This document shows, piece after piece, positions 1 to 33,175 of a stretch of 64,000 nt of DNA; within the stretch, counting starts at the first letter, position 1, and each line of letters opens with the position of its first letter. Source of the DNA: Leptolyngbyaceae cyanobacterium (lineage in GTDB: Bacteria > Cyanobacteriota > Cyanobacteriia > Phormidesmidales > Phormidesmidaceae); the NCBI GenBank assembly GCA_965263355.1, contig CBDHHL010000056.1, positions 896,001-960,000 on the forward strand, read 5' to 3'. The notes under the pieces are model-generated. The model was not told the origin of the DNA. It saw nothing but the letters and a program-made list of their open reading frames with translations, and did not search any database. A program made the translations under genes and the position numbers.

Positions 1-632
1 AAATGCAATTCTGTACAACCAACAATAACTGAATCAACCACATACTTTTTTCGTAAATGTTCTACAAAATGGCAGGCAGAACGAATTGATATATCATTAG
101 CCTTAACCTGATATATCATCTCATGAACAGCATCTTGATCAGCCTTATTTGGGGAAAGGATATAGGGTTCAGCCCTACCCCAAAGTGAGCTTCTCGGAAA
201 GATATCTAACTGACGTGTACCATTGGTACAAAGTAACAAATGGGTCGTTTTCCGAACAGCCACCTCACTAAGAATCGTATCAATCAAGCAAATCGTTCGG
301 TCTCGAAGATTAAGGGGAAGCTGGGGCAGCAAATAGTGACAGGTGATGCAACAAATGACAATTTTCGAAACCTTTAAATCATGCAAATAATTTAAAGCCT
401 CAATCAGTTTGCTCAGCAAAACATCGTAATTTCCAGTCAGTAATGCTTGAGTCCGATCGGGAAACGTCGGATCAGAATAGGTGACAACCCTGGGTGCCGC
501 CTGTTCACATTTTCCCCTAAGACCATAGGCATAAATTGTCTTGAGAAATTCTGCAGAGGCCAAGGGACCCATACCGCCTAAAATACCAAGCAGATCTGCT
601 TCTGATGTTGTTGTCGGCTGTAAATACTTCAC
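1..632 (-). CDS. Aspartate/glutamate racemase family protein (McyF-like), 3' end beyond the left window edge
   Basis: Not in the ORF track. Manual translation from GTG at 632 gives MKYLQPTTTSEADLLGILGGMGPLASAEFLKTIY...SDPTFPDRT...IVICCITCHY...IVGCTELH, open to position 1. The GxxGGMGP, first Cys and GCTE motifs of PLP-independent two-cysteine Asp/Glu racemases are present. Confidence 0.9.
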   Translation of the reverse strand, partial: MKYLQPTTTSEADLLGILGGMGPLASAEFLKTIYAYGLRGKCEQAAPRVVTYSDPTFPDRTQALLTGNYDVLLSKLIEALNYLHDLKVSKIVICCITCHYLLPQLPLNLRDRTICLIDTILSEVAVRKTTHLLLCTNGTRQLDIFPRSSLWGRAEPYILSPNKADQDAVHEMIYQVKANDISIRSACHFVEHLRKKYVVDSVIVGCTELH

Positions 633-695
633 ATTAGATCCGCCAGATAATTTAAACCTTACCCTGCCCAGAACGGTCGTTCTTCCAGTATTGGA

Positions 696-1511
696 CTACA
701 CACTTTGCATTAACCTAGGCTCTTCTAAAGCATCCTTATGTAAAGCCTCGATTGCTAGACAATTGCGACTAACTAAAAACTCTGGACGACGATTTTCAGT
801 TTTTACAGGTACATTTTCAACACTGTTGTAGGTAATAATGACAATATTGCGAGAAAATGGCGAAATATTATTAGCTGACCCATGAATACAGTTAGGGTGA
901 AACAGTAAAACTGACCCTGGTGCACCAGTAGGCGCAATGATGCCATGTTTATGCACTAGTTCCGTCACAGTTTGATGGGGCAGCACATACTTCAGATCAG
1001 CACTGACATTTGCCTCCCAGCCGTCACCTCGAGCACCAACCTGAATTTTTCCTTCCCGATGGGAATCGGGAATTAGAAATAAAGGCCCATTAAACTGATT
1101 CACCTCATCTAGAAAGATAAGAATATTCAAAGCCCTCGGCGCTAGCATCCCATCTTCTTCGGCCCAAAAGATAAAGTCCTGATGCCAGGGCCAGGAGTCT
1201 CCAGAAAAAGAGGCTTTCGTATTAATCTTGAACTGGTAAACGTAAACTTGGCTTGCCAAAATTTGAATAGCTGGTTGAACCAATCGAGGCAACCGAGTGA
1301 GATCGCTCAAAATGCGATTACGGGCGTGGCTTCCATGGAGAGCCCGTACGGTTTTTCCACTTTTTTCAAAAACCCGTCCAACGTTGTCTTTTTGGATAAG
1401 AGAAGGGATTTCCGATCTGAGTAATTCAATTTCAGCAGATGAGAAATAGTTGGACAAAAAAAGATATCCATGCTGCTGATAAAATTTTAAGTCTTCATCA
1501 GTTAAAAACAT
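696..1511 (-). CDS. Fe(II)/2-oxoglutarate dioxygenase, PhyH/EctD family; L-proline trans-4-hydroxylase-like
   Basis: HxD...H facial triad (WPWHQDFIFW ... IHGSANN) and QFKINxK motif. From memory it resembles Dactylosporangium proline 4-hydroxylase along its whole length (KTVRALHG, WAEEDGM, SADLKY, RPEFL). Confidence 0.88.
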   Translation of the reverse strand: MFLTDEDLKFYQQHGYLFLSNYFSSAEIELLRSEIPSLIQKDNVGRVFEKSGKTVRALHGSHARNRILSDLTRLPRLVQPAIQILASQVYVYQFKINTKASFSGDSWPWHQDFIFWAEEDGMLAPRALNILIFLDEVNQFNGPLFLIPDSHREGKIQVGARGDGWEANVSADLKYVLPHQTVTELVHKHGIIAPTGAPGSVLLFHPNCIHGSANNISPFSRNIVIITYNSVENVPVKTENRRPEFLVSRNCLAIEALHKDALEEPRLMQSV

Positions 1512-1623
1512 ACATCTGCCTCTTAGTCGTTAACTTGCATGGAATATAAATTGGCTGAACTGCCCCTGAGCAACCTGTCAAATTCCTAAGAAAGTCTTTG
1601 ACTGCTGAGTATACATAGAAGGG

Positions 1624-4600
1624 CTACGGTTTATCTTTACCCCATAATTCCTCCTTAAGATTATCGGGAACAATCAGCGTCCCGTCAGCAGAACGCTGTA
1701 TTTTCCGTCGTCTCCGCTTTGGAATTAGATTGCTAGTTGTCGACTCTGTATTCTTTTTACCCTGCTGATGGTCTGCAACTATCTGCGCCAGAGCAGCAAC
1801 AGTAGGGGATTCAAAAAATGTTCGAAGCGATAGCTCTAAGCCAAACGTTTGACTTATACGTGCGACAACTTGGGTTGCTTGTAATGAATGTCCTCCCAAG
1901 GCAAAAAAGCTATCGTGGATATCAATAGAATCCTGTTTTAGGATATCGCCCATGATATTTGCCAGACTAATCTCAGTAGGGTTGCGAGGAGGGACAGATA
2001 GGGGACGACGTATGGTGAATTCTGGGTCTGGCAAAGCATTGCGGTCAACCTTGCCACTTGCAGTCAGCGGGAGAGATGTTAACTCCATATAGACAGAAGG
2101 AATCAAATGAGCAGGCAACTGCTTGAGTAAATAGGTATTGAGCTGATCTCGATCAATGCCTTGGGGGGTCTTAGGAACAATGTAAGCCACTAAAACCTGG
2201 TTTCCGTCTGGATTAATACGACCAACAATAACAGTCTGACCAACGTCTGGATGCTGATGGAGTCTGGATTCAATTTCTCCAGGTTGAACCCGTGTACCTC
2301 GAATTTTTAGCTGACCATCCAATCGATCTAAAACTTCTAAACTGCCATCTGGCAAGTAACGCCCCTGATCGCCTGTGTAATACAGTAAATCTTCCTGATC
2401 GCTGCGGAAAGGATTGGGTACAAAGCAAGGGTTTGAAGTAGCTGATGTATTGATATAGCCAAATGTTCGAAAGGGTGTACGCACCACAATTTCGCCAATT
2501 TCGCCGATGCCACAGGGTTGGTTAACAGCCCTCAATACTAAATTTTGAGTCTGAGGCAACGGCCACCCTACTGACTGTATGCCTGGTCGCACTTGCTCAG
2601 GAATCGGGTAATAGGACTTAACCATGGTTGTTTCCGTAGCCCCATAAAGATTAATCAGCTTGCCAGATCCTGGGAAAGCTTGCTTCCATTGGCCAATGAG
2701 CGTATCCGTTAAAGGTTCACCTGAAAAGAATGTGGCCCGTAAGGTAGATAGCGTAACGTCATTGGGTGCATTTGAAATCCAGTACTGGGCAACTGTGGGT
2801 ACTGTATGAATAACAGAAATCTTTTCATTCTCAAGCCATCTCAAGAGATGTTCACTACTGACCTCATCATCTGGCGGTAAGCAAAGGGTTGCCCCGCTGG
2901 TTAGGGGTAAGAAAATATCCCGCAACAGCGCATCAAAGGATAATCGAATTAATTGAGCAACCCGATCCCCAGGCCCCACCTGGAAGGTTTCTCGCTGCCA
3001 ATCAACAAAATGGGCAATTCCTTTATGGGAGCCCATTACCCCTTTAGGCATTCCAGTACTGCCAGACGTGAAGAAAATATATGCTGGTTGTTCACCATGC
3101 ACGTGAGGGAGTGACCTATGGATATCATCAACACTGTGATTTTCTTGGGGAGAACGCTTGTCCACAGGCTTAATATCTGAGCCAGCCAGTAATTTAATGG
3201 ATGCTGACAACCAATCCTTGGGAGATTCCGAATCCAGCGCGATTAGATAACCAACATTAGCTGCTTGCACCATGAGTTGAAGGCGTTGTGTTGGCAAGTT
3301 TGGATCAAGCGTCAGCAAGACGGAGCCACTTAGAAGAATGCCAACAATATGAACAATTAATTCAAAGCACCGATTCCCATAAACCGCTACTACATCTCCT
3401 GTCTTAACTCCTGCCTTAATAAGATTCTCTGCCACATGTTCAGCATAGTTAAATAACTGCTGATAGGTCCAGCTTTGCTCTGCTTGAGTAATAGCAATGT
3501 GCTCTGGCTGTTGATTGGACCAACTCCTAATCAGATCCGTAATAGGAGAAAATTGAGGCTCCTCCAAAGGTAGAACTGGATCAGGTAGCAATGATTTAGT
3601 TTTAGGTGTGAGTAAGGAATAGTTCTGAATAGGCTGGTCTGGCAATAACACAATTTGTTCCAGGAGTGCTTTGAATTGATCCAGGAAAATCTCCATGCGT
3701 TCAGCCGAAAAGAGCGAGCGTCGATAAACTAACTCCAGTGTCAGACCAGTACTTTCATCATCTCTCGGTTCATATACATACAGTGTTATCCAGAACTTAG
3801 ACTCTAGCTCCGGCATCTCCAGCATTTCAAATTCCAAACCTTCCATTTCCAGCGCTGTTGCTGTGGGCTGCATCAGGTTTAGCATGACATCAAATATAGG
3901 ATGACGCTCAAGGGAACGCTCTGGCTGCAGGATTTTTACTAGTTGTTCGAAGGGCACATCCTGATTGCTATAAGCTGCAAGCGTCACTTCCCGAACATGA
4001 CTTAATAAGTCTTGGAATGTTGTTATTCCTGACAAATCAACACGAATTGGTAGTGTATTAATAAAGAATCCAATCAGATCAGTCGTTCCTGGGTGCTGAC
4101 GGCCCGCAATCGGTGTCCCTATAATGATGTCAGTCTGATCGGTCTGACGGGAAAGTAAAAGGTTAAATGCTGCTAACAATGCCATGAAGAGCGTAACATT
4201 CTCGCGTTGGCTTAACGCTTTAAGCTTCTGACTAAGAGATACTGACAGCAGACAGGAACACCTTGCCCCTTCGTTGTTTATTTTCTTTAAATTGGTGGAG
4301 TCTGTTGGCAACCTCAAAACAGGTAAATCTCCTGACAGGTGCTGTTTCCAGTAACTCAATTGTGAATCTAGGGTGTCGCTGAGTACATGGCGTTGCCAGT
4401 AAGCATAGTCAGCATACTGATTGACTAAGGGAACTAAAGGAGATATTTGTCGTTGTTGATAAGCACCGTAAAGAGTCACAAATTCTCGAATCAAGATTTC
4501 ACTTGACCAGCCATCAAAGATGGCATGGTGCAGTGTCAGCAGTAAAACATTAGATTGTGGGGTTAAGCGTAGCAGTCGCAAGCGTAACAAGGGTCCTTTA

Positions 4601-7600
4601 GCAAGACTAAATGGAGCTTGAGCTTCTGCATTAATACTTTGCTGTAGTATCTCAGGGTGTTGCTCAGCTGAACTATTACTTAAGTCTTCAATTGGAATTG
4701 ATAAATCAGAAATAGGGGCGATTGCCTGGATTGGTTTTCCTTCCACCATTGGAAAGGTAGTCCGTAAACTTTCATGACGCGCGATCACTCCGCTCAGGGC
4801 AGATTCCAATGCAACAATATCAATCTGACCTGTAATCTTCAACGCTACAGGAATACTATAGGCCGCATTTGAACCATCTAGCTGCTCCAGAAACCAGAGC
4901 CGTTCCTGGGACCAGCTCAGGGGCAATGGGATATCAGCATCTCGGGGGACGGCAGTCATGGGAGCAATCGCCCGTCTTGACTGTCCAGTCAGAGCTTGCT
5001 GAATTCGCTGATCCAGTTCAGCTACAGTAGGGGCTTCAAATAGTTCACGTAATGGCAATTCAAGCTGGAAGGTGTCTCGCAGTTTGGCAATTGCTTGAGT
5101 CGCCAACAAAGAATGTCCTCCCAACTCGAAGAAGCTACTGTGGATACTAATAGAATCTAGCCCTAGCACCGAAGCAAAAATGGTGGCAATGCTCTCCTCA
5201 GTAGGGGTGCGAGGGGCCATGAAGTCTCCATCTAAGTTTGGTTCAAACGTTGGCACAGGAAGTGCCTTGCGATCTACCTTGCCATTGGGGGTTAGAGGCA
5301 GGGTCTCTAACTGCACAAAAGCACTCGGCAACATGTAGGTTGGTAATTGCCCCGTAAGAAAGTCCCGTAACTCTCCTGACGTAAGTTGATTGTCTTGACT
5401 AACTACATAAGCAACTAACTGTGGGTCTGCTTGATTATCATCTCGAGCAATGACAATAACCTGTTGAACTTTGGGATGGCTAGATAAGATAGACTCGATT
5501 TCCCCAAGCTCAATGCGGAAACCGCGAATCTTTACTTGGTGATCAAGGCGGCCCAAAAATTCAATCTTGCCATCCACCAAATATCGGGTTAAATCTCCGG
5601 TTTTGTAAAGGCGACCTGAGCCAAAAGGATTAGGAATAAATTTCTGAGCCGTTAATTCTGGACGATTGCGGTAGCCACGGGCTACTCCATCACCGCCAAT
5701 ATACAGTTCTCCCACAACTCCAATAGGCACTGGTTGCAGCTGAGCATCCAGAATATAGAGCTGAGTATTAGCAATAGGACGACCAATAGGAATAGATGTT
5801 GTCAGGTGATCATTGGGGCTAACGTCATAAGTACAGCATCCAACTACAGTCTCAGTGGGGCCATATTCGTTGATAAGTCTTGTCTCTGGCGCATGGGTCA
5901 ACCAGGGAGAAATAATATCGTTCGTTAGTGCTTCTCCGCCAATCACAAAAGCTTGGGTCTGATGAGCTAGCTTTTCTGCTGGCAGAAGAAAAGCGAGAAG
6001 CTTTAGATGGGCAGGTGTTAGTTTGACTAGGCTCAATCGCTCACTAGATTGTAAGGCCGTTGCCAATGCCTCAATATCGGAGTCTGCTGAGAGTAAAAAT
6101 ACCGTTTGTCCCACCAAAAGAGGGGAAAATAAGCCCGTAATGGTAGCATCAAAACCTATTGAAGAATGTACCAGCGCTCCAATTCCTTTTGAATTAAAGT
6201 AAGTGGTTACACACCAGTAAAGGTAATTGGTTAAACCCTGATGGTTAATCTCAACGCCTTTGGGTTGACCTGTTGATCCCGAAGTGTAAATGACGTAGGC
6301 CAAATTGTCTGGGTGTACATCACATGCTACAGGTTCGGTACTGCATGCAGCAATTTTGGACTCATCTCTACCTAGACAAACCACCTGACTATCGTGGGAG
6401 GGCAGTCCTGCCATCAACGTTTCTTGAGTCAGTAACACTGGCGCAGCAGCATCTTGCAACATGTAAAGGAGCCGCTGCTTTGGATAGTTAGGATCAAGGG
6501 GAACATAGGCTCCACCTGCCTTGAGAATTCCCAACAGGCCGACCATCATGTCGAGGGAACGCTCTAAATACAGCCCCACCAATGTCTCCGGTTTTACCCC
6601 TAGTTGCTTTAAATAGTGGGCCAACTGGTTCGCTCGCTGATTTAGCTCTCGGTAAGTTAAATGTTGTGAGCCTAGCGTTACGGCTACAGCATCTGGGGTC
6701 TTTTTTACCTGAGTTTCAAACAATTGATGAATACATTGAGTGTGAGGATACTCAACAGTTGTATCGTTCCACTCGACTAACAACTGATTTCGTTCCTGTG
6801 GCGTCAACAATGGTAATCGCGACACTGACATCTCTGGGGCCGCCACTACTGACTCTAACAACTGCTGCAAATGCCCTGACAGTCGGGCAATAGTCTTGGC
6901 TTCAAACAAATCAGTGCTGTACTCCCAGCTACCCACCAACCCTGACTCTGTTAACTGCATCGACAGCGTCAGATCAAACTTTGTGGTCAGCGTATCTGGT
7001 GCCAATGATGTTAAGGCTAACCCAGGCAACTCCAGAACTTCTTCAGGGGTATTTTGAAACACAAACATCACTTGAAACAGTGGTGCATGACTCAACGAGC
7101 GCTCAGGCTGTAATGCCTCCACTATCTGTTCAAACGGTGCTTCTTGATGGGCATAGCTATCTAAGGTTATCTCACGGACTTGACGTAAAACCTCAGCAAA
7201 ACTCAAATCGTTCTCTAACTGCAAGCGCAACACTAGGGTGTTAGTAAAAAAGCCGATCAGTGGCTCAATTTCGGCACGATTACGATTGGCAATAGGAGAA
7301 CCGATGAGAATATCAGATTGACCACTATAGCGGTAGAGCAATGTCCCAAATCCTGCTAACAGAGTCATGAACAATGTCACACCTGAGCTTTGACTCAACT
7401 TTTCTAACTGTTGTGTTAACTGAGCACTAAAGTGGAAGTCTTGACAGGCACCTTGATGACTTTGTAATGCAGGTCTGGGATAGTCTGTCGGTAACTGCAG
7501 CAGGTTGGGGGGACTGGCTAACTGTTTTCGCCAATAGGCTAGCTGTTGTTCTAAAACATTTCCTTGTAACCAAAGCTGTTGCCATAGGACATAATCCCCA

Positions 7601-10600
7601 TATTGGACAGGTAGGGGAGCAATACCCAAGTCTTGACCTGCCAACACAGCCTGATATGCTGTAGCGACTTCTCGAATCAGAACGCTGATAGACCAACCAT
7701 CGGCAATAATATGATGCAAGGTGACCAGCAGTAGTGCTTCTTCTGTGGAATGCTGCAATAGTTTTACTCGTAACAAAGGACCTGCAGCTAGATCAAAAGG
7801 GGCCCGAGCTTCTTCCTGGATTGCCCGTTGGATATGTTTCTGCCATTCATCTGAATTTAGCGCAAACCATTCTTCTCGTTTGACCGCCACAGTCTGATTT
7901 GGAACTATTTCTTGAACTGGTAAACCTGCCACCGCAGGAAAACGAGTTCTCAATATCTCATGGCGTTCAACCAGAGTCTTAAATGCTTGTTCCAGGGCGT
8001 CTACATTTAAGCTACCTGTGAGGTGTAGCGCTGCAGGCATATTGTAAGTTGCTGCTGTGCCCTCCTCCAGTTGATTTAAGAACCACAAACGCTCTTGAGC
8101 CCAAGAGAGGGGAAGATGTTGACCTTCTCTGGGGAGAGGAGTGACTTTGGGAAGCGTAAGGCCTGAATTCTCCTGACGCAATTGCTGCACACATTGGTCT
8201 AATTCAAAGATGGTGGGTGCTTCAAACAGAATGCGTAGGGGAATTTCCAGTTCGAAAGTCTGTCGTAGGCGAGAAATGAGCTGGGTTGCCAATAAAGAAT
8301 GTCCTCCAAGCTCGAAGAAGGACTGGTGAATACCTACAGGATGAACCTTGAGAATGGAGCTGAATAAATCTGCAATCAGTTCTTGGCTAGGTGACTGCGG
8401 CGTAACCAACGTCTCAATGCTATTCAGATTTGGATCGGGTGCAGGGAGAGCTTTTCGATCCACTTTGCCATTGGGCGTTAGGGGAAGGGCTGCCAGCTGA
8501 ACAAATGCACTGGGAATCATATAGTCTGGCAGCTTGGTCTTGAGCAGTTGCCTGAGGTCTACAGGCTCTAGCTGGGTATCTGAGTTAACGATATAGGCGA
8601 CTAGTCGCTTGTCCCCTGGTTGATCTTCTCGGGCAATGACGACAACCTGGTTGACCTCAGGATGGTGGGATAATGCTGCTTCAATTTCTCCAAGCTCAAT
8701 GCGGAAACCACGAAGTTTAACCTGATGGTCAATCCGTCCAAGATATTCAATATTGCCGTCTTGCAAGTAACGGGCTAAATCTCCTGTTTTGTAGAGACGA
8801 CCGGGGCCAAATGGGTTAGAGATAAATTTCTCGTTGGTTAATTTAGGTCGATTTAAATATCCTCGGGCTAAACTGACACCGCCAATGTGCAGTTCGCCTG
8901 CTACGCCAATGGGAACTGGCTGCTGCTGTGAATCTAGCAGGTAAATTTGAGTATTGGCAATGGGATACCCAATGGGTGGATTACTGGACCATTGGGCCGG
9001 GGATTCGGGCAAGATATATGAAGTGACTACATGGGTTTCAGACGGACCATAGTGATTATGAAAAACACAGTGATCGAGCTGGGAGAAGAGGTCGATCATT
9101 TGTGGAGTCACCTGTAGTTGTTCCCCGGTTGCGATCGCTTCCGTCAACTTAGAAAACAATAAAGGCCGATCACCATACACCTCAGCTAGCTTCTGCCAAA
9201 GGACAACGGGCAAAATTGCCTTTTGAATCGGATTTTCAGCCAAAAAGTGTACCAGTTTATCCAGATCCAGCCGATGGTCTTCGGGAATGAGAAATAACGT
9301 CCCTCCAGAACACCAAGCCGCGAACATTTCATGGAAGCTAGCATCAAAACTAAGGGAGGCAAACTGGAGAATTCCAACGCCCACATCCATCGTCTGTAAA
9401 TGCCAGTGAATCAGATTTGTCAGGGCTCTGTGAGCTAGCGCAATGCCCTTTGGTACCCCGGTAGAGCCAGACGTATAAATGACGTAAAGCAAATTATCCG
9501 CCTGCACCGCTGACGTTACATTGTCAGTAGACTCAACAGACATTAATGGCCACTGGGTATCCAGACAAATCGTACTGACCGTTGAAGACGGTAAAGATTG
9601 CAACAACGATTGCTGGGTCAATAAAAGCTCCACCCCTGAGTCTTGGAGCATATGACTCAGACGCTCATTGGGATAATTGGGATCCAGGGGTACATAGGCC
9701 CCCCCCGCCTTGAGAATCCCCAACACCCCCACCACCATCTCCAGGGAGCGATCCACACAAATTCCCACCCGCGACTCTGGCTTTACTCCTTGGTTTTGCA
9801 AATAGCGGGCCAGCTGATTGGCCCGCTCATTCAACTGCCGATAGGTCAATGATTCTGCTTCAAATACCACCGCCACGGCATCGGGGCTGCGCTCCACTTG
9901 AGCTTCCATTAACCGATGCACACAATGTTCTGGACCATAGTCCACGGTGGTGTCATTCCAACCCTCTAGCAGTTGATGACGCTCTTCCGCAGTCAATATC
10001 GGTAACCGAGAAATGCTCGCAGTCGGCTGGCTGACAACCCCACGCAATAACGTTTGAAAATGATCCAACCACCGCTCTAGGGTGGTTCCTTCATACAAGT
10101 CAGAGTTATAATCGCCGTCTAGGACCAGCCGGTCACCCAAATCAATCAGGTTGCAATGTAGCTCATAGGGAGCATAGTGAATGGGACGCGCCGACAACTC
10201 AGCGGTTAATTCTGGTAGCGGCGCTAACTGCACTGGCGCTTCCAAATTAAATGTGGCTGAGACCAACGGCGTACGACTGAGGTCAGGCGGAAGCTGCAGC
10301 TGACTCAACAACTCGGCAAAGGGATACTGTTGATGCTCGTAGGCCGAGATCAGGGTATAACGCACCCGAGCCAGATACTCCCCAAAGGACTCATCAGCTC
10401 TATAGTGACTATAAATCGGCAGCAAATGAGCCCCGTAACCCACCATGCCACCACTGTCAGGCATAGAGCGACCGCTACTAGGCACGCCGACAATTATTTC
10501 AGTTTGACCACTCAGACGATGTAGCAGCAGTAGATACACCGCTAGCAACACCATAAAGAGTGTACAGTTTTGCTGACGGGCTAATTGCTGCAGCGGACCG

Positions 10601-13574: not shown

Positions 13575-13607
13575 ATTAAAGCAGCAAAAAGTAAAAAATT
13601 GGTAAAA
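13575..13607 (-). promoter_or_regulatory. 33-bp element upstream of the NRPS, also present upstream of the FAAL-PKS (26678-26710)
   Basis: attaaagcagcaaaaagtaaaaaattggtaaaa vs attaaagcagtgaaaagtaaaaaactggtaaaa: 30/33 identical, same orientation, both intergenic and upstream of minus-strand biosynthetic genes. Confidence 0.6.
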
Positions 13608-16600: not shown

Positions 16601-16902
16601 AGAAAACCACCGCTGCGGCTGTACATTTTGCCCGGCACGTCGGGATCGGGATCGTAGTATTTATCAATGTCCCATCGAGTCGCAGGAATTTCAGTAACCC
16701 CATCTCCCCCTTGGCGCAATAGTTGCCAAAACGATGCCGGATTGTCTACACCACCTGGAAAACGGCAACCCATACCAACAATGGCAATGGGCTCACGTTT
16801 GGCGTACTGTAGACGCTCAATCTTAGCTTCTAGGGTCTCAATTAATAAAAATGAGCGCTGTAGAGGAGAGAGCTGTTCGGCCTGCACAGAATCGTTTGCC
16901 AT
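13672..16902 (-). CDS. Type I PKS, KS-AT didomain (malonyl-type); its ACP lies on the next gene
   Basis: N-terminal docking helix LSPLQRS...EPIAIVG; KS DTACSSS, HGTGT, NISH; AT GHSLGE and [12 protein letters not shown] post-AT linker. No GxDS ACP motif. Confidence 0.95.
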   Translation of the reverse strand: MANDSVQAEQLSPLQRSFLLIETLEAKIERLQYAKREPIAIVGMGCRFPGGVDNPASFWQLLRQGGDGVTEIPATRWDIDKYYDPDPDVPGKMYSRSGGFLEQVEQFDPQFFGISPREAVSIDPQHRLLLEVAWEALENAGYPVERDQGSSTGVFVGITLDDYGLIGKQAQAELQTQSPSVANPQFEIHGVTGSPSYAAAGRISYTFGFTGPAMAIDTACSSSLVAIHQACQSLRQQECEMALAGGVNLILLPDSMIATSKAKMLSFDGRCKTFDAVADGIGRGEGCGILVLKRLSDAQANGDRILATIRGSAVNQDGPSSGLTVPSGISQQAVMRQALKQAKLDPADISYVEAHGTGTPLGDPIELRSLAKVYGPGHSPESPLYISSAKTNISHVESAAGVAGVMRVILQLQHREIAPHLHLKTPTEHFNWQDVSVVVPDTVVPWEVQSGSRIGVVNSFGATGTNAHVIVQEAPQSVNTSPSPESSALPERSLHLLTLSAKSEAALKALANRYRQHLEHCQDSDLADICYSANTGRTPFKYRFALIASNLSDLGAQLDLLTTSEALELEPKFNVATPGLFPKVAFLFSGQGDHSVNMGRQLYETQPLFREILDNCDAILRSELKQPLIEILYPNSEIEPSDSEVKGLDQATDVQSALFALEYALAQLWIAWGIKPKVVMGHSLGEYVAACVAGVFSLEDGLKLVTERARLMQALPAGGVMVSLRCSVEQAKSVIDGQGVSHQVSVAAINGPASTVIAGSDFAVQTVVTQLEGDGITTKYLQVSHAFHSVLMQPMLANFEAVARQVTYSLPQTKLISCVTGQAITSEIATPEYWCRHILAPVNFAAGMETLSQEGCEVLVECGPKPTLLGMGRQCLSVDKGTWLPSLRPGYSDWQQMLTSLSELYLKGFTIDWVSFERDYPQRNQVTLPTYPFQRKPYWFDLPESVDAVPANGALNQSEQSPETTVSSPSSISGQTIPQEDTSKLPQENSIGELQLTESVGLSNNGWIAPPDQALETPLERLINQQIQTMSQLISQQLDVLKSQSVYQDSSEESPAFPTSESFPPTSSPLRPSMHN

Positions 16903-20689: not shown

Positions 20690-20693
20690 GTCC

Positions 20694-23600: not shown

Positions 23601-26105
23601 TGTTTGACTACCTGCCAGATCGGCTGGGGCCAAATTCGCATTTTCTAAAGCTTCCCAGCTCACTTCTAAAAGCAGCCGCTGCTGTGGATCTAAGCTGGTA
23701 GCCTCGCGGGGAGAAATACTGAAGAACTCTGCATCAAACTGATCAACATCACTCAAGAATCCTCCCCATCGACTGGTATTGAGTCCAGCAAGTGCACTGA
23801 CATTCCAACGCTCATCGGGCACTTGAGTAATGGCATCCTGCCCAGTTTGTAGCAATTCCCAGAATGCCTCCGGAGTGGGCGCCCCTGGAAAGCGACAGCC
23901 AACACCAATGATGGCAATCATGTCTGGATCGACCTGAGGGGAACCCAACCCATTTGATGCAGGGGAAGAGGAGGGCACTTGATTTGCCTGGGCTGGGGAG
24001 GACACTGAATCACCAGACAAATATTGCGTCAAATTGGCCAGGGTTGGATAGTCGTAAAGCAATGTAGGGGAAATCTCTTGCCCTAGCCAATCTTGCAACT
24101 GCCCCGATAATCCCACCGCTACCGCAGAACTGAGCCCATAGTGGGCCAAGGGTTCATAAATATCAATCTCATGGGGAGCCACCTGCAATTGTGCCGCCAC
24201 CTGAGCAATTAACCAAGCCTGAATCGTTCCTGCATCGGGAAAATCAAGCACTTTAACGGGCTGCTTTTCCACCTTTGGTAAAGGAACTCGGCTTGTTTCA
24301 CCCAGCTGCCAACTCGCAACAGAATTCAAGCCATCGTTGGCAAATTCAGCTTGACATGTTCGTCGCCTCACCTTGCCGCTGGATGTTTTCGGCAAACTAC
24401 CCGGCTTTAGCAGTTGAACTGCATATAGGGGTAAATCATGGTACTCAGATACAGCCCTGCGCATCTGGCAAAAAATCTCATCAGGAGCCAGTTTGCGCAA
24501 ATAGCGACGCTCCACTTCATGAACCACCACCAGCTGTTCTTGTCCTTCAATTTCAAGTCCAAAAGCGGCCCCACCACCCGCTCGCAGGGCCGAATGACTG
24601 CGCTCAATGGTCAATTCAATATCCTGGGGGTAGTGATTTCGTCCCTGGATAATAATAAGATCCTTAATCCGTCCAGTGACAAAGAGTTCTTTATCTCGAA
24701 AAAAACCTAAATCACCTGTTCGCAAAAATGGTCCTTCTCCGGTGTCTGCAGTAAAGGCTTGAAAGGTCTCTCTTGTCTCCTGAGGGCGTTGCCAATACCC
24801 CTGGGCAACATTGCCACCTGCCACCCAAATTTCACCTACCTGCTCAGGCAAACAGCGGGTTAAATCTTCAGGATTAACAATAATAATCTCTTGCTCTAAC
24901 CAGGTTTGCCCACATCCAACAATCCCTTTACTATAAAGCTGTTTAACAGCTTGATTTTCATCGGCTACAACTACTTGGTTCTGACTTAACGCATCCTCCT
25001 GAACCTCGAAGATCACGGGTGCTTGTGCCTTTAATCCTCCCGAAACCAACAAACTGGTTTCTGCCATACCATAACAAGGATAAAAGGATTGCCAATGAAA
25101 CCCACAGGACTCAAAAGTAGCTGAAAACCTCCGTAAGGTGTCTTCCCGTACGGGCTCTGCGCCACTATATGCTACATCCCAAGAACTCAAGTCTAGGCTC
25201 GCTCGTTGTTCAGCAGTAGTTCTCTGAATACACAACTCATAGGCAAAATTAGGGGCACCACTGGTGGTGGCACGATAGTGGGAAATAGCCTGCAACCACC
25301 GCAACGGTTTTTGTAAAAATGCAACCGGTGGCATTAGAGCACAAGGAATACCTAAATAAAGAGGCTGCAGAACATTACCAATCAATCCCATATCATGATG
25401 TAGGGGAAGCCAACCGACAAAAATAGTCTGATCGGTATGCCCAAAGGCAGCCTCAATCATGCGTTCGTTGTACATCAAATTGGCATGGGTCAGCATGACG
25501 CCTTTTGGAGTACCGGTTGACCCAGATGTGTACTGCAGGAATGCCAATGTTTTTGCAGTGATACCGGCATCTTGCCAGGGGAACACCTGCTCGGTGAGAA
25601 GATCCTTATCAGTCACCAACCATTGAACAGGAGAAGAACACCCAGGAGACACTAAATGCAACTGGAGTTGCGCCAATAACTTGGTGGTTGTAAGGACTAC
25701 ACTAGCATCAGCATCGGCAACAATGGCCTGCAGTCGGATTGCATTCCGGTTAGCCCGAGGAGGATATGCAGGCACAGCAACCAAGCCTGCATAGAGACAA
25801 CCAAAAAAGGCCGCTATAAATTCAAGACTTGACGGATAAACCAGGAGTGCGCGCTCCCCTGGAGTGCAGGTCTGCCGAAGTTGAGCAGCAATGACACGAG
25901 CCTGACAATCCAGCTCTAGATAAGTTAAACGACCCGATTCAGACTCCCCATCTTGGAGAAAAATATAAGCAGTTTGGTGCGGTTGATGCTGGGCTCGATA
26001 GCGCAACAGATCTATCAATGTATCGGAACAAGCTGGCCTGCTCGAACTACATTCCTCATCTAGATAACTCTTGCCTGAATTCGCCCTCATTGATATCTTC
26101 ACCAA
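20694..26105 (-). CDS. Fatty acyl-AMP ligase - ACP - KS - AT - DH N-terminal half (lipo-initiation PKS)
   Basis: FAAL motifs [83 protein letters not shown] and [13 protein letters not shown] (DH catalytic His motif). The ORF ends after the first hot-dog fold. Confidence 0.95.
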
Positions 26106-26409: not shown

Positions 26410-26449
26410 TAGGGACTCTAATACATAACTAGGGACTCTAATACATAAT
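26410..26449. repeat. 20-bp tandem duplication in the divergent promoter region
   Basis: tagggactctaatacataac followed directly by tagggactctaatacataat (19/20 identical). Confidence 0.85.
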
Positions 26450-26677: not shown

Positions 26678-26710
26678 ATTAAAGCAGTGAAAAGTAAAAA
26701 ACTGGTAAAA
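26678..26710 (-). promoter_or_regulatory. Second copy of the 33-bp cluster element
   Basis: 30/33 identical to 13575-13607; lies in the ~1.1-kb AT-rich divergent intergenic region. Confidence 0.6.
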
Positions 26711-27194: not shown

Positions 27195-29309
27195 TTGGGC
27201 ACTATGCGTTATTTTGACGAGTATTGCGAAATCCATCTTGAATCAGATGCGGCACCCTTTAAGTGGGTCTTTAAGAGTGGCGAGTCAATTCAGATTAGGT
27301 TTGGTGTCTCGCTTGCCCGTCATCCCGAGCGTGGGTACGTCACATTAGAAGCTCGAGATCCTCAGGGAGGGGTCTCAACTCAGCAGATTGCAGCCCACGA
27401 AGTCGGTATTACAGAAAACAGTTTTAAGCTTTTTGCGGTCATCCTACCAGCCGGATCAAATGGAACAGGTTATCGGTATCGGGTGGGATATAGAGATCGA
27501 CAGGGTCATATGCACGCGAGCCAACAAACACGCTGTTTGATGGTGTGTGATGAAGCGCTCCTCTCCATGCAAGAAGTTGAGTCTGTTTTGTTAGATGTTG
27601 TTGATGGTAATGTCCTTTATGGTCCTCGACCGACAGTTCCAATGTCCGCCAGCCCTCAAAACTGGGCCAATCGATTGTTTTATTCGTTGATTATCGACCG
27701 ATTTTCCCAAAGTACCACCGAAAATCGGCAAGGTTTGGGCTTTGTCCCCTATAATTTGACTTCTCCTTACACGAGCCATGGGGGAACTTTACAGGGAATT
27801 CGGGAAAAGTTGACCTACCTTAAGGACCTGGGGATTGGCGCGCTGATGGTCAGTCCAGTCTATGTGAATGAAGCCAGTGGTTATCATGGTTATCACCCGA
27901 TTCATCTGCTGATGGTGGATCCTCGCTTGGGTACGTTGCAGTTACTGCAGGATTTGGTGGAGGAAGCTCATGCCCTCGATATAGCCGTCATCTTAGATGT
28001 GGTGGTGAATCACCTGGCAGATAACATTGATTGGGAAGAATATGGGGGACCTCCCGGCGGAGAATTCAAATATGTGCGGGGGGATAGTGCCGCTGTGATG
28101 CCCTTTCCGGTGGAGACGCGCAATACCCTGTTGTTTCATGGCCCTGAATATACCGACCTGGTCAACCAACGGTTGTTTGGATTCTTGGAAGACTGGCGCA
28201 CTGAGAAAACCTATGTGCGTCAGCTGCTGGTAGATCATCTCAAGTACTGGTTGGCCGTTACAGATGTGGATGGTTTTCGATATGATTCGGCCCGTCACGT
28301 GGGTACAGACTTTTGGCAACCGTGTGTGGCCGAAATTTCGAGATATGCTCGCTATCTGGGCAAAACTGATTTCTTGCAAATTGCTGAACATGCGGGCAGT
28401 TGCCATGAGGAACTGACGGCTTATAATGCGGCCAATTTCTCAGGTTTTTTGGACTATCCTACCCATTACACGTTGAAACATGCGCTTGGGGATGGAGATT
28501 GGTTGAGCGGGTTTGCAGACTATTTTTGTGGGTTACTAATGCCCACGTCAACTTATGTTCAAGGTTGGCGCAACAACTTAATGTTTTTGGATAATCAAGA
28601 TACAACACGGATTTTACATGAGTTTTTAATCCGTCATGCGGATCGGGCCAAGGCAACCAGTTGTTTACATTTTGCGTTGGCTTGTTCCATCCTAGGTCCT
28701 CAGAGGCCAGCCATTTATGCAGGGACCGAACAAGAGTTCTCTGGCGCGCTGGGAATGCATCAACGGGAGGATACAGGCGAGTGGATTGGCCATGACTGCC
28801 ATGTGCGGGAGGATATGTTTGATAACCCGTCCTGTGTTTGGAAGTTTGGTCCTATTAATCGCAAGGTGTTTCAGCCCTATAATCAGGAACATGAAACGTT
28901 TCAGCTGATTCAGTCACTGGCAGATGTTCGTAGGCGGATGGCAAATATTCAGAGTTGCGATCGCACCATCTTAATTTCAAAAGATCATGGTTTACGCTGT
29001 GTTTTACTCCACGATGCCCAAGGCACTCCCCCCTGCTTGGTCGTGATGAATTTAGGCATACAGCATCTGGCAGAAACTAATATTTCTATTCCCGAAAGCC
29101 ACGGCCAGATTGTGGGTCTGGAAGTGCAGGCTGCCACAGCTGGCGGACAGCTAGCGTGGATAGATCAAACCCTACAAACTCAACTGCCGCCATTTGCCTT
29201 TGTGCTAGCGCAGTTGGATATTCGCCACCGGCCTATTGTCAACGAACAATGGCATCCTTTTAAGGAGCAAACTCTGGTCGCTCGTCAAGCAGAAGTGGCT
29301 AATGCTTAA
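27195..29309 (+). CDS. Alpha-amylase family (GH13) glycoside hydrolase/transglycosidase with an extra N-terminal domain
   Basis: GH13 regions: IDRF, HGGTLQGI, YHGY, DVVVNH, GFRYDSARH (nucleophile Asp), IAEH (acid/base Glu), FLDNQD, IYAGTEQ. The real start may be the ATG at 27204. Confidence 0.9.
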   Translation: MGTMRYFDEYCEIHLESDAAPFKWVFKSGESIQIRFGVSLARHPERGYVTLEARDPQGGVSTQQIAAHEVGITENSFKLFAVILPAGSNGTGYRYRVGYRDRQGHMHASQQTRCLMVCDEALLSMQEVESVLLDVVDGNVLYGPRPTVPMSASPQNWANRLFYSLIIDRFSQSTTENRQGLGFVPYNLTSPYTSHGGTLQGIREKLTYLKDLGIGALMVSPVYVNEASGYHGYHPIHLLMVDPRLGTLQLLQDLVEEAHALDIAVILDVVVNHLADNIDWEEYGGPPGGEFKYVRGDSAAVMPFPVETRNTLLFHGPEYTDLVNQRLFGFLEDWRTEKTYVRQLLVDHLKYWLAVTDVDGFRYDSARHVGTDFWQPCVAEISRYARYLGKTDFLQIAEHAGSCHEELTAYNAANFSGFLDYPTHYTLKHALGDGDWLSGFADYFCGLLMPTSTYVQGWRNNLMFLDNQDTTRILHEFLIRHADRAKATSCLHFALACSILGPQRPAIYAGTEQEFSGALGMHQREDTGEWIGHDCHVREDMFDNPSCVWKFGPINRKVFQPYNQEHETFQLIQSLADVRRRMANIQSCDRTILISKDHGLRCVLLHDAQGTPPCLVVMNLGIQHLAETNISIPESHGQIVGLEVQAATAGGQLAWIDQTLQTQLPPFAFVLAQLDIRHRPIVNEQWHPFKEQTLVARQAEVANA

Positions 29310-29618
29310 AATTAAAATATTGGTATTTAGAAATTAATTATATGACAAGCTTAAAATTAAAATATTGGTATTTCCCGAAAGCCACGGCCAGATTGTGGGT
29401 CTGGAAGTGCAGGCTGCCACAGCTGGCGGACAGCTAGCGTGGATAGATCAAACCCTACAAACTCAACTGCCGCCATTTGCCTTTGTGCTAGCGCAGTTGG
29501 ATATTCGCCACCGGCCTATTGTCAACGAACAATGGCATCCTTTTAAGGAGCAAAGTCGCTCGTCAAGCAGAAGTGGCTAATGCTTAAAATTAAAATATTG
29601 GTATTTAGAAATTAATTA
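29089..29618. repeat. Direct duplication (~250 bp) of the GH13 3' end and downstream spacer
   Basis: 29089-29340 recurs at 29372-29618, identical except that the second copy lacks 5 bp (ctctg). Confidence 0.95.
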
Positions 29619-29630
29619 AGCAAACATTAT

Positions 29631-31082
29631 ATGACAAGCGACAAGTCTTCCCATGATATAGATTCTCACGCTGCTGAAGAACAGAAACCCTGGTCTGCTC
29701 GCTTGTTTTTCCTATCTGAGTCGATTCGGAACTTCATTCTATTTTGGTTTGGCCAATCACTCTCTCAAATCGGTACCCGTCTAACTGGATTTGGCCTTGG
29801 CATTTGGGTCTATCAGAATACCCATGCTGTCACTCAACTGAGCCTGGTTTTCTTTATCACCACATTACCAGGGGTGCTGCTGACACCGTTTATTGGTGTA
29901 CTGGTGGATCGGTGGAATCGGCGCTGGATTATCTTCTTTAGTGATTGTGGTGCGGCCCTTGTCACAGCAGCATTGCTCCTGCTACAAATGCATGGCCAGT
30001 TAGAAATTTGGCATACCTATATTTCTGCATTTGCCACCTCACTGTGCGGCTCCTTTCAAATGCTCGCTAAGGGAGCGGCCATTCCCATGATGGTGAGCAA
30101 AAAACAGTTGGGGCGCGTCAATGGTATGTTGCAATTTAGTCGAGCCCTAAGTGAAATTTCCGCTCCCGCCCTGGCGGGTGTTTTGGTGGGAACTTTAAAT
30201 CTAAGTGGTCTATTATGGCTAGATTTAAGCAGCTATGGCATTGGCCTAATTACCTTGCTATTTGTTTCGATTCCTCAACCTGAAACCGAGCCAGACTCCG
30301 ACTTAAATCGCTCTTTTCTAGAAGACATTTCCCAGAGTTGGCAGCTGATTTCTTCCCAAGTAGCCCTGCTAGTTCTGTTTGGATTCATGGGAGTTCACTT
30401 TTTTGTTAATGGCATGACTCGGGTATTGCTCAATCCGTTAGTGTTGTCATTCTCCAGTGCCCAGACCTTTGGCAGTGTAATGTCCCTAGGCAGTATTGGC
30501 ATGGTGATCGGCAGTATTCTGATGAGTATTTGGGGAGGCGGTCGCAATCAGTTAATCAGTTTGTTGGGGGCTTCGGTTATCAGTAGTGTGGGTTTGGTAA
30601 TTACTGGACTCAAACCATCGATAACTCTGATTTCCTGTGGCCTGTTTATTTCGTTCTTCACGTTGCCGATTATCTTGGGCACCAATCAAGCCATTTGGCA
30701 GCAGTCTATCCAACCGAGTTACCAGGGGCGAATCCTGTCTCTAGTGGGAACGTTTACAGGTTTTTTGGCCGCCATTGGGACCATTAGCGCCAGTCCGTTG
30801 GCCGATGTGATTCTAGAACCGATGTTTACTGATCAAGGACTGTTGGCGAGTACCGTTGGCAAATTGATTGAAACCGGTAGTGGGCGAGGTATTAGTTTCC
30901 TGATAATTTTAGAAGGTGGTTTGCTTTTGAGTACATCGTTGTTGGTATATGCCTACGTGCGATGGCAGAATCTAGAGTATGTGCTTGTAGAAGATTCTTC
31001 TGAAATTGTTGAACCATCAGAAATAGCAGTTCCAGAACCGCCAGAAACAGAAACAGAAGCCTCTCTGACATCAGTCAACTAA
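29631..31082 (+). CDS. MFS efflux transporter (macrolide-efflux/DHA3-like), probable product exporter
   Basis: About 12 hydrophobic segments; FWFGQSLSQIGT, GVLVDRWNRR (MFS motif A), QGRI; located within the BGC operon. Confidence 0.9.
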   Translation: MTSDKSSHDIDSHAAEEQKPWSARLFFLSESIRNFILFWFGQSLSQIGTRLTGFGLGIWVYQNTHAVTQLSLVFFITTLPGVLLTPFIGVLVDRWNRRWIIFFSDCGAALVTAALLLLQMHGQLEIWHTYISAFATSLCGSFQMLAKGAAIPMMVSKKQLGRVNGMLQFSRALSEISAPALAGVLVGTLNLSGLLWLDLSSYGIGLITLLFVSIPQPETEPDSDLNRSFLEDISQSWQLISSQVALLVLFGFMGVHFFVNGMTRVLLNPLVLSFSSAQTFGSVMSLGSIGMVIGSILMSIWGGGRNQLISLLGASVISSVGLVITGLKPSITLISCGLFISFFTLPIILGTNQAIWQQSIQPSYQGRILSLVGTFTGFLAAIGTISASPLADVILEPMFTDQGLLASTVGKLIETGSGRGISFLIILEGGLLLSTSLLVYAYVRWQNLEYVLVEDSSEIVEPSEIAVPEPPETETEASLTSVN

Positions 31083-31106
31083 TCATTTCATTTTAACTCA
31101 ACGAAC

Positions 31107-32405
31107 ATGGACATCTCCCTGTCAACACCAGCACCAATTTTTATTCTTTGTTGCGATCGCTCCGGCTCTTCCTTATTGCGATATATCATCGATACCCATC
31201 CAGCCATTGCCGGTCCCGCTGAACTTAATTTAGGCCAAGTGTGTCGCAGTCTTTACTATCTAGTCACTGGGACCTTGGGCGAAACCATCTATGCTGAGAG
31301 TTCTGAAAAAGATAAACAAGTAATTGCCAGGGTACGTCAATTAGTTTTAGAACTCATGGAGGAATATGTTGCTGCCAAAGGAAAACGATTTTGGTGTGAA
31401 AAGTCTCCTCAGAACCTGCAGTTTCTCACTATTTTAAAAGCTGTTTTTCCCGAAGCTAAATATATTTGCCTATATCGCCATGGCATGGATGTTGTTCATT
31501 CTTGTTTAGAGAGTAGTCGATTATCTCTCATGCCAGAACAGCTAAGCTATGTTTGTCAGAATTCTGGCAGCATTGTGGGGGGGATGGTACAAAACTGGGT
31601 AGAAAAGACGCAACAGATCCTGACATTCGAGCAAACATATCCAGAGCAATGTTTTCCAATTAAGTACGAGTCCTACGTTGTTAATCCAGCCGCTACGCTC
31701 CAACCTATGTTCGAGTTTCTCGGGGTAGACTGGGATGAAACATTGTTAGATTCCGTCTTTTCAACTCAGCACGATCTAGGACCAGAGGATCCAAAAGTTG
31801 CTTATTCTAACCGAATTCATCAGGGGTCCATTGGCAAAGGGGCACAGATAGATACATTGCGAATTCCCTCGCCATTGATGACCCAGATGAATCAACTGCT
31901 GGAGACATTGAGTTATCCTACGGTAGGTGCAGACTGGGGCATAGATGCCTATGACAACTTGATCAACAACAGCTTTGAGAAAACGCAATCGGACAATGGG
32001 TATTTTCAAGAAACTCTCGAAGTATTCCCCTTAAAAGCGAGTGAAGCACTGATCAGCTTCTGTAAGTCACGGCTCAATACCCTAATTGAGGAATTAGAAG
32101 GGCGCGCAGTCTCCTATAAGCTTAGATTTGTCAATAATCCCCACGATGCTTGGACAATTGACCTTGCCAATCGAGAGCAGCCTATCCAACAGATAGATAG
32201 GGACGCTGATTGCACGCTGACCTTTACGCCCGAAGATGCCCTCAATATTGTCAATGGGAATGCTAACCCCATCGAACTCTGGATGCAGAGTAAGCTCAAA
32301 GTCTCTGGAGATAGGCATCTAGGAGAAATCTTCTGCTGGTTTTTAGTTGATCGATTACAATGGCGCAAAAAATCGGCAACATGGTGGTTGGGCGTACCCC
32401 ATTAA
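31107..32405 (+). CDS. PAPS-dependent sulfotransferase with C-terminal SCP2 (sterol/lipid carrier) domain
   Basis: 5'-PSB-like PIFILCCDRSGSSLL, WCEKSP, 3'-PB-like YRHGMDVVHS, IKYE; C-terminal DADCTLT...NPIELWMQSKLKVSGD typical of SCP2. Confidence 0.87.
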   Translation: MDISLSTPAPIFILCCDRSGSSLLRYIIDTHPAIAGPAELNLGQVCRSLYYLVTGTLGETIYAESSEKDKQVIARVRQLVLELMEEYVAAKGKRFWCEKSPQNLQFLTILKAVFPEAKYICLYRHGMDVVHSCLESSRLSLMPEQLSYVCQNSGSIVGGMVQNWVEKTQQILTFEQTYPEQCFPIKYESYVVNPAATLQPMFEFLGVDWDETLLDSVFSTQHDLGPEDPKVAYSNRIHQGSIGKGAQIDTLRIPSPLMTQMNQLLETLSYPTVGADWGIDAYDNLINNSFEKTQSDNGYFQETLEVFPLKASEALISFCKSRLNTLIEELEGRAVSYKLRFVNNPHDAWTIDLANREQPIQQIDRDADCTLTFTPEDALNIVNGNANPIELWMQSKLKVSGDRHLGEIFCWFLVDRLQWRKKSATWWLGVPH

Positions 32406-33175
32406 GGAAAGCTGATAATTTGTTCAGCTAATGTGCTCAAATCACTCAACAGACTCGCTTGTTGGGATTGCAGAAAAAAGTGGTCTCCGGAAAATAGTTT
32501 TTGGGTAAATGGCCCCCTTGTCTGTTGTTGCCAAGCCGCTAACCCCTCTGGTTTAGTATGGGTGTCAGCGGTGCCTCCATAAACCCTGATGGGGCAGCTG
32601 AGCGGTGGCATTGAGCGGTGCTCATAGGTCTCCAATATCGTAAAGTCTGCCCGTAATATGGGCAAAAATAAATCAAGCAGCTCTGAATTAGCTAAAACTG
32701 CTTCAGGGGTACCATCATAACGACGAATGGCAGCAATCAGTTCTGGGTCTGGCAGGGCATGGATCGGTGGCACAGATACTGGGAAGTGTGGTGCATTTCG
32801 ACCAGAAACAACCAAATGTGCTGGCTCAACCTGGCCTTGCTGCTGTAGCGATCGCACTACCTCATAGGCTAACAATGCCCCGAGACTGTGACCAAACAAA
32901 ATATATGGCCGATCCAAATAGGGCGCAATGGCGTTACTAACAGCTGATACCACATTGGTTAGCTGGGTCATTAGTGGTTCCGAAAAGCGATGTCCTCGCC
33001 CTGGTAACTCAACGGCCCATACCTCTACTTTTTGAGATATCCCCTCTGGCCAGTGACGAAAAAGAGTTGCTGACCCACCCGCATAGGGAAAACAAAATAA
33101 TCGCAGGGGGGACTGTTGAGAGGTAGACCATACCTTTAACCAAGGAGTAGAGGTATTTACCATATGTTGGTTCAC
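32402..33175 (-). CDS. Type II thioesterase (GrsT/SrfAD family)
   Basis: LFCFPYAGGS, ELPGRG, FGHSLG (GxSxG), LRADF, GDHFF. Convergent with the sulfotransferase with a 4-bp overlap. Confidence 0.95.
   Translation of the reverse strand: MNQHMVNTSTPWLKVWSTSQQSPLRLFCFPYAGGSATLFRHWPEGISQKVEVWAVELPGRGHRFSEPLMTQLTNVVSAVSNAIAPYLDRPYILFGHSLGALLAYEVVRSLQQQGQVEPAHLVVSGRNAPHFPVSVPPIHALPDPELIAAIRRYDGTPEAVLANSELLDLFLPILRADFTILETYEHRSMPPLSCPIRVYGGTADTHTKPEGLAAWQQQTRGPFTQKLFSGDHFFLQSQQASLLSDLSTLAEQIISFP

Follow-up and report, generated by a model that had tools for sequence, protein, structure and literature searches.

The first 33,175 nucleotides of a 64,000-nucleotide stretch from a Leptolyngbyaceae cyanobacterium (assembly GCA_965263355.1, contig CBDHHL010000056.1, positions 896,001 to 960,000; the whole stretch is hereafter the window) hold a hybrid polyketide synthase (PKS)–nonribosomal peptide synthetase (NRPS) gene cluster together with a divergent operon (Table 1). 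All ten functions that a preliminary description had listed for positions 1-33175 were recovered in the list of open reading frames (ORFs) and in family scans, with their catalytic motifs kept. Motif reading located Cys-His-His in both ketosynthases (KS), the malonyl HAFH motif in both acyltransferases (AT), HHxxxDG in all three condensation (C) domains, intact carrier serines and the aminotransferase lysine; family scans detected no epimerisation (E) and no thioesterase (TE) domain in the NRPS of the window. Contigs of three runs from two samples carry cluster DNA, and the same contigs skip a 278-base repeat behind the GH13 gene that is probably an assembly artefact; one run contig reaches about 6 kb beyond position 1, and runs with small word shares (X1-X4) were left out of the evidence. 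The host lies near Leptothoe and marine Leptolyngbya, since at 90% its MiaB groups with proteins bearing those names. The NRPS, the monooxygenase protein and the PhyH protein are singletons at 90% protein clustering. The cluster is real, intact and apparently orphan; it is of a known class, and its recognisable blocks, which sequence comparison traces as a mosaic to other pathways, stand in a new order. At a probability of roughly 0.55, we read it as the front part of a pathway to a lipopeptide composed of a 3-amino-4,5-dihydroxy acid, 4-hydroxyproline, Asn and a D-acidic residue, possibly sulfated, with at least one further module left of position 1.

Table 1. Genes and features of the cluster, in positions of the window (ACP, acyl carrier protein; A, adenylation; DH, dehydratase; FAAL, fatty acyl-AMP ligase; KR, ketoreductase; LLM, luciferase-like monooxygenase; T, thiolation).
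Feature	Position	Strand	Remarks
FAAL-ACP-KS1-AT1-DH (N half)	20694-26105	-	AT1 malonyl-type; OcfJ-like layout
FAAL domain	24306-26030	-	within the 20694-26105 gene
Dehydratase, N-terminal half	20796-21200	-	His1677 kept
LLM-DH (C half)-KR-ACP	16904-20689	-	OcfI-like
MupA/PuwE-type flavin monooxygenase domain	19655-20689	-	TIGR04020
Dehydratase, C-terminal half	19010-19564	-	Asp456 kept
KS2-AT2 (malonyl), without ACP	13672-16902	-	terminal helix 13780-13848 recurs in next protein
ACP-helix-aminotransferase-(C-A-T)x3 and conserved C-terminal tail	1624-13485	-	no E, no TE
Aminotransferase domain	11371-12765	-	within the NRPS gene 1624-13485
NRPS C-terminal tail	1627-1734	-	after T3
PhyH-family Fe/2-oxoglutarate dioxygenase, likely proline 4-hydroxylase	696-1511	-
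McyF-like aspartate (Asp/Glu) racemase	3-632	-	cut by window edge; both catalytic Cys and McyF-aligned Arg kept
HasB-type GH13, N-terminal Ig-like domain	27195-29309	+	likely start ATG 27204; Asp364, Glu398, Asp469 kept
HasK-type MFS transporter	29631-31082	+
Sulfotransferase fused to SCP2 lipid-binding domain	31107-32405	+
Type II thioesterase (TEII)	32402-33175	-	81% identical to TEII at same site in genome G800
33-base element upstream of NRPS gene	13575-13607		second copy, 3 differences, 26678-26710, divergent promoter region; possible regulator site
278-base duplication of GH13 3' end	29277-29554		probably assembly artefact

Domains and motifs support the FAAL–PKS–aminotransferase start, and with it a beta-amino lipid, that had been proposed for this line. 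One point of the first reading needs correction: the dehydratase is split across two genes, with the monooxygenase between its halves. The LLM domain scores 490 bits against TIGR04020 (MupA family; cut-off 244), and its best solved relative is the PuwE domain (E = 2.8e-117). MupA acts on beta-keto chains bound to an ACP and places a hydroxyl on their alpha carbon (PMC10952193), from which we infer that module 1 yields a diol and that, once module 2 has acted, the chain is a 3-amino-4,5-dihydroxy acid. The early position of the monooxygenase had been presented as a departure from the microginin/puwainaphycin layout that would shift hydroxylation to another carbon. It is not new, because it matches the OcfJ/OcfI layout of occidiofungin and is common: 20 of 389 Nostocaceae genomes match the split-layout gene at 1e-200 (21 cyanobacterial places). 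Homologues numbered 2,239 proteins at E 1e-100 among 7,999 scored, 110 of the 119 other proteins listed cover 89–100% of the monooxygenase-protein query, and a plasmid search with the same protein returned four records.

The closest precedent for this front end is the ocf cluster of Burkholderia, which shares with the window the order FAAL-ACP-KS-DH(N) and LLM-DH(C)-KR-ACP, then an aminotransferase module, NRPS and TEII (OcfJ, OcfI, OcfH). We located the same two-gene split in an unannotated Burkholderia locus whose gene sizes fit ocfN, ocfJ, ocfI and ocfH (PMC9494966); its identities to the window are 63% for the LLM, 47% for the FAAL, 62% for KS1 and 48% for the aminotransferase. The ocf type differs in an extra KS-KR-ACP module ahead of the aminotransferase, absent from the window, and in a truncated first AT, E domains and other A codes. 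Its eight-module, E-containing NRPS is not matched by the three modules of the window, and within the window, which leaves off at position 1, there is no glycosyltransferase that would correspond to the xylosyltransferase OcfC. A racemase, a PhyH, a sulfotransferase and a HasB-type GH13 are all missing from the 43 kb of the ocf-type locus that were read.

Structure prediction pairs the two dehydratase halves with a score of 0.83, against 0.17 for the best of three controls, with a partner pLDDT of at least 84 and runs that agree in at least 69% of contacts. The mark for binding was reached by 116 of 157 solved pairs and 2 of 215 mismatched pairs; since the partners are halves of one domain, they may have reached it through their resemblance to intact dehydratases of solved structure. 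On this model the halves would come together again as one dehydratase that spans the two proteins and so docks them, and its part would be mainly structural.

Module 2 is split as well: the KS2-AT2 gene has no ACP, and the next gene supplies one with its serine. In four sister clusters KS2-AT2 continues with an ACP, a helix and a second monooxygenase-KR, whereas in the window it stops after the helix, and the following gene opens with ACP, helix and aminotransferase. This junction looks like a graft. The direct coupling of the monooxygenase module to the aminotransferase module is what predicts a 3-amino-4,5-dihydroxy fatty acid. No aminotransferase, and hence no such coupling, was seen in the stretches read of 15 fetched cyanobacterial loci (of the 21; several are short contigs), and a homologue search with aminotransferase-C1-A1, dominated by long NRPSs, had no close relative among the 120 matches listed. 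The available parts of reviews on cyanobacterial beta-amino acids describe 2-hydroxy, 2,5-dihydroxy, 2,5,7,8-tetrahydroxy and 6-hydroxy patterns and no 4,5-diol (PMC10300848, PMC12473245, PMC8471579).

Puwainaphycin and microginin pathways share the FAAL start, the aminotransferase module and the PuwE monooxygenase family with the window. Their oxygenase lies after the aminotransferase in the same protein. In the window, unlike these pathways, the monooxygenase precedes the aminotransferase and C1 follows directly after it. The puwainaphycin/microginin oxygenase gives 3-amino-2-hydroxy acids (PMC12473245), and the puwainaphycin type places a proline-type residue next to the beta-amino acid (PMC10300848), as is predicted for the window. 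Laxaphycin and heinamide combine a beta-amino fatty acid made by FAAL-KS-AT-ACP-aminotransferase with enzyme-made 4-hydroxyproline (PMC8471579); compared by description, they are long lines with epimerases for which no monooxygenase-KR module or racemase is described. The minutumamide (PMC12184294) and cystomanamide (PMC9581180) clusters do not match. The absence of a characterised gene-for-gene match, as first suggested, held in the literature searched, which likewise held no description of the cluster and no A-code strings (including the available part of PMC11837247; subscription papers and MIBiG lay outside this scope).

Alignment gives the A-domain codes DAHIITHVVK for A1, DATKVGEVGK for A2 and DARHFSLMVK for A3. 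We take the A2 code to specify Asn, in line with the residue first assigned to module 2. Hydroxyproline at module 1, also proposed before, is supported because the A1 code travels with PhyH. The two co-occur in 4 of 4 clusters; all three A1-like clusters outside the PhyH-anchored set (G046, G119, G123) hold a PhyH, and none was found in the four genomes whose cluster is without A1 (4 of 4; G121, G070, G800, G082). A1-like cores (at least 50% identity) made up 8 of 41 in PhyH-anchored metagenome loci against 3 of 180 elsewhere, the 41 cores coming from the 24 of 59 anchored loci that hold a core, with the kinship of the genomes uncontrolled. The metagenome scan returned no close PhyH orthologue (best 56%), and a solved-structure search with A1 gave no telling match. 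A role for PhyH as an Asn hydroxylase was set aside: PhyH tracks A1, and G800, from the family of the host, has two Asn modules and no PhyH.

For module 3, a racemase-fed acidic residue had been suggested, and the A3 clade does keep company with a McyF-like racemase: in each of the 13 other genomes that have the clade the stretch read includes the racemase, among them all 8 that were found without querying for it. Among solved structures, McyF is the nearest to the window racemase, which keeps both catalytic cysteines and the McyF-aligned arginine. A3 shares its first four code letters, D-A-R-H, with module 2 of a nodularin-type NdaA from G167 (DARHVGIFVK); no solved A domain with an A3-type code was found. 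Of the more specific claim of D-isoAsp or isoGlu, the acidic residue stands; among isoAsp, isoGlu and another acidic residue, isoAsp is the favoured but tentative choice. Microcystin and nodularin pathways share the McyF-type racemase, a KS-AT-ACP-aminotransferase module and an Arg-containing D-x-R-H code, and differ in a four-module Adda PKS with methyltransferases, where the window has two modules, no methyltransferase and a fatty-acid start; the microcystin/nodularin-type clusters of G167 and G315 have three PKS genes. Apart from these clusters, a racemase in G689 (C1:335517-338904; L196) lies beside a stand-alone A-T-TE with the code DARHLALMTK, outside any larger NRPS cluster.

The idea that the line ends at three residues was not borne out. 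All 9 of the relatives picked in which the A3 module ends a protein have kept the tail that follows T3, and the clusters of G120 and G800 have a further NRPS with a Pfam TE, with a similar end in G046, G119 and G121. Because there is no TE in the window and relatives have TE-bearing NRPSs, the product is probably longer than three residues, and the assembly line most likely continues left of position 1, with its last genes just outside the window. In G140 and one G123 protein, a TE-like end directly follows an A3-type module.

The history of the site can be followed in G800, which holds the GH13 (84% identity) as the only one of 172 genomes of the host's family and carries a cluster between the same flanking genes, and so at the same chromosomal site. 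Identities to the window are 67–79% for FAAL-KS-AT, 71% for the Asn module, 58–61% for C3-A3-racemase, 75% for the MFS transporter and 81% for the TEII, but the G800 cluster has no monooxygenase, aminotransferase, A1 or PhyH, and a GT2-PMT fusion occupies the position of the sulfotransferase. For the monooxygenase-KR-KS2 block the nearest counterparts are four Nostocaceae clusters (KS2, 75–76%), and for A1 they are G046, G119 and L095 (63–70%). We take these similarities to mean that modules were exchanged on a scaffold resident at the site, and that the decorating enzyme can be swapped as well. Sister clusters (G800, G070, G026, G120, G082, G046, G119, G121, G123) share the A3 code DARHFSLMVK, the racemase and the tail; the G070 group shares DH-LLM-KR-KS2 (47–76%), and G046, G119 and G123 share A1 and PhyH. 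They differ in peptide order and have no aminotransferase or sulfotransferase in the stretches read.

Two orphan families also came to light. Four near-identical clusters (G070:C93, G026:C58, G120:C14, G082:C1; L156-L170) have two monooxygenase-KR modules and a predicted tetrahydroxy lipid, followed by modules of Asp, A3 and Tyr type; the last A domain has a monooxygenase embedded in it, and CmlA-like and cupin hydroxylases are present. The G026 copy is nested in a hassallidin-type cluster. The second family, conserved in seven Nostocaceae genomes (G316, G067, G287, G341, G355, G153, G148; L240-L253, L265-L269), comprises a FAAL, KS-AT-aminotransferase-C, an Asp-type module, a racemase, a stand-alone A domain of DARHLSLMTK type and a Tyr-type module with a TE-like end.

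The divergent operon was expected to accompany lipopeptide clusters, and it does: L004 and L063 show a FAAL divergent from GH13-MFS-sulfotransferase next to unrelated backbones. GH13 orthologues (55–62% identity) occur in 36 of 389 Nostocaceae genomes. Of the seven loci fetched, five lie in Thr-rich hassallidin-type NRPS clusters, one in a partial cluster of that type and one stands beside no NRPS; an MFS orthologue (54–58%) accompanies four of the seven. HasB is a 670-residue alpha amylase and HasK a 452-residue MFS protein (PMC5834425, supplement), and the G325 orthologue of the GH13 also has 670 residues. By identity and context, GH13 and MFS are HasB and HasK orthologues, HasB being matched by size and context rather than to a named sequence. 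The catalytic Asp-Glu-Asp is invariant in 16 GH13 sequences, with Gln in place of the usual His, and the N-terminal domain resembles Alpha-amylase_N (0.95). The structural model is poor (pLDDT 56.6, pTM 0.44), and its fold matches to maltogenic amylase and neopullulanase (TM about 0.3) are a lead only; a plasmid search gave distant matches only. The hassallidin (has) cluster otherwise differs: its nine-module Thr-rich NRPS (HasN, HasO, HasV, HasY) is not in the window, whose codes are Pro-like, Asn and acidic; nor are the glycosyltransferases HasD, HasQ, HasT or HasX found there, G800 having its GT2-PMT fusion at the same site; and the window has the PKS-aminotransferase start and the sulfotransferase instead. 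GH13 tailoring, as first put forward, was overstated: it is unproven because HasB/HasK orthologues go with many unrelated peptide backbones.

The sulfotransferase-SCP2 family is wide (117 proteins). NRPS, PKS or FAAL domains appear in 42 of 73 loci, and four loci have a HasB-type GH13 but no GT2/PMT. Among solved structures the window's sulfotransferase comes closest to that of CurM (E = 3e-13). A CurM-like sulfate elimination was set aside, given this weak similarity and a TEII that is kept in G800, which has no sulfotransferase at that site. Related loci deserve mention in their own right. A cluster in G001 (C7:17561-60905; L143-L145) combines a FAAL, KS-AT-ACP-aminotransferase, C-TauD, a CmlA-like hydroxylase and an NRPS with TE, and carries the GH13-MFS-sulfotransferase set as well as a second, different GH13 inside the NRPS operon. 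Many Acidobacteria have a sulfotransferase-SCP2 gene immediately upstream of a FAAL-C-A NRPS (L006-L008, L010-L013, L015-L017, L023, L024, L030, L033, L042, L066), which suggests a recurrent family of sulfated lipopeptides.

A pathway can be proposed from these parts. The FAAL, observed as a domain, would load a fatty acid; module 1 would add malonate, and a vicinal diol would arise in two steps, alpha-hydroxylation of the beta-keto thioester by the monooxygenase and reduction by the KR, while the reassembled dehydratase halves hold the two proteins together. Module 2 would add a second malonate, and the aminotransferase would turn the new beta-keto group into an amine, which moves the diol to C4/C5. 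A1 would receive trans-4-hydroxyproline made by PhyH, A2 would take Asn, and the racemase would furnish D-Asp, the side chain of which A3 most likely activates, as in nodularin. To judge by relatives, an NRPS with a TE, encoded outside the window, would dock onto the conserved tail. The sulfotransferase-SCP2 may sulfate a hydroxyl, most likely on the lipid, with export by the MFS transporter and editing by the TEII; we assign no role to the HasB-type GH13.

Several observations weigh against this pathway, beginning with the fact that the product is a prediction from genes and that the left end of the cluster lies beyond position 1. OcfJ's PKS domains are regarded as inactive (PMC13684122), which conflicts with our carbon count. 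The dehydratase may also act, because both catalytic residues are kept: the window shares His1677 and Asp456 with the four Nostocaceae sisters nearest to it, and the two residues come together where the halves are predicted to touch. The lipid would then be a 3-amino-4-enoic (or 4-oxo) acid without a 4,5-diol, with any sulfate on hydroxyproline or elsewhere. The ocf-sized locus keeps these residues too, yet the occidiofungin product keeps its hydroxyls. Other split relatives have lost them (catalytic His and/or Asp in 8 of 15 other aligned gene pairs), and we consider an active dehydratase unlikely. The residues themselves may differ: PhyH could act on leucine toward methylproline or on another residue, and A3 could load D-Glu or a sulfonate or phosphonate analogue, possibly alpha-linked. 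PhyH scores equally for the leucine hydroxylase GriE (7.7e-69) and for entries 7dzz/7e01 (1.3e-68), which we take to be trans-proline 4-hydroxylase. The A3 core is only 36% identical to NdaA module 2 and 31–33% to the D-Glu modules of NdaF/McyE type (DPRHSGVVGK), and so 31–36% to the side-chain-activating modules as a whole; it forms a clade of its own, at 59–71% identity, in the 13 other genomes. The racemase is a weak match to cysteate racemase, and in G801 (C11:334215-341411; L223) a variant A3 module (DARHFALMIK) and a racemase flank a PEP mutase, a context that points tentatively to racemisation and loading of a phosphonate amino acid. On the other side, a W...LKY segment is common to PhyH and the 7dzz/7e01-type entry and is not in GriE, no methylproline dehydrogenase or reductase gene lies in the window, and the closest solved relative of the racemase is McyF, all of which makes other residues rather improbable.

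Doubt also attaches to the operon and to the graft. The GH13-MFS-sulfotransferase-TEII operon could be a passenger from an earlier cluster at the site, with a product neither sulfated nor glycosylated. Its GH13, MFS and TEII match their G800 counterparts at 75–84% identity, and the backbone made by the G800 cluster is a different one; in several sisters that share the monooxygenase, A3 and racemase, the stretches read contain no GH13. Furthermore, no NRPS/PKS domain appears in 31 of the 73 sulfotransferase loci; two of the 31 are 21-kb cyanobacterial loci at 49–52% identity. Yet the sulfotransferase is intact and occupies the GT2-PMT position of G800, which suggests an active swap; the same three-gene set flanks the FAAL clusters in L004 and L063; and a 33-base element is common to the divergent promoter region and the NRPS gene (it was not found in 21 related loci, and a promoter scan was at chance level, with 4 found against 3.5 expected). 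We regard the operon as quite unlikely to be a passenger. Finally, the graft may not work, because KS2-AT2 lacks an ACP and lies 187 bases from the next gene; the cluster would then be a recent, non-functional recombinant, its module 2 stripped of the ACP and its aminotransferase block attached without productive docking. Mosaic identities, occurrence in one genome only and the end of KS2-AT2 after the helix, where sisters continue with an ACP-free LLM-KR, fit such a history. All ORFs are nevertheless intact with catalytic motifs, the next gene supplies an ACP with its serine, and the same DNA is present in runs of two samples, so that a dead cluster is very improbable. The reading that we prefer remains a working pathway to a lipopeptide with a 3-amino-4,5-dihydroxy acid.

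Beyond the cluster, three neighbouring genes of the window (43491-49898; 601–685 residues) have weak dCache matches and no other recognised domain, and adjoin a kinase-regulator pair and an ABC transporter. A 975-residue protein (53670-56597) with Ig-like, PPC and RTX calcium-binding repeats is probably secreted.

Each part of the cluster has precedent, and the surprise is moderate. The most far-reaching combination is improbable as a whole: a lipopeptide that would be the first to unite sulfation with a 3-amino-4,5-dihydroxy acid, 4-hydroxyproline and iso-linked D-Asp, that would belong to an unstudied family, widespread in cyanobacteria and recognisable by DARHFSLMVK plus racemase, and that the GH13 would glucosylate from glycogen or maltodextrin. 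If true, this would be tailoring free of nucleotide sugars and would also explain HasB in hassallidin clusters, where this conserved gene has only the label 'alpha amylase'; because the GH13 stands here without glycosyltransferases, the cluster offers a clean setting in which to test HasB. The split dehydratase with its inserted monooxygenase is a candidate docking device for engineers, and module mixing at one chromosomal site is seen in unusual detail. The cluster predicts a new lipopeptide and a beta-amino acid pattern absent from the available parts of the reviews consulted, and its two A-domain codes not found in the literature searched, each tied to a supply enzyme, would mark orphan clusters in at least 13 genomes.

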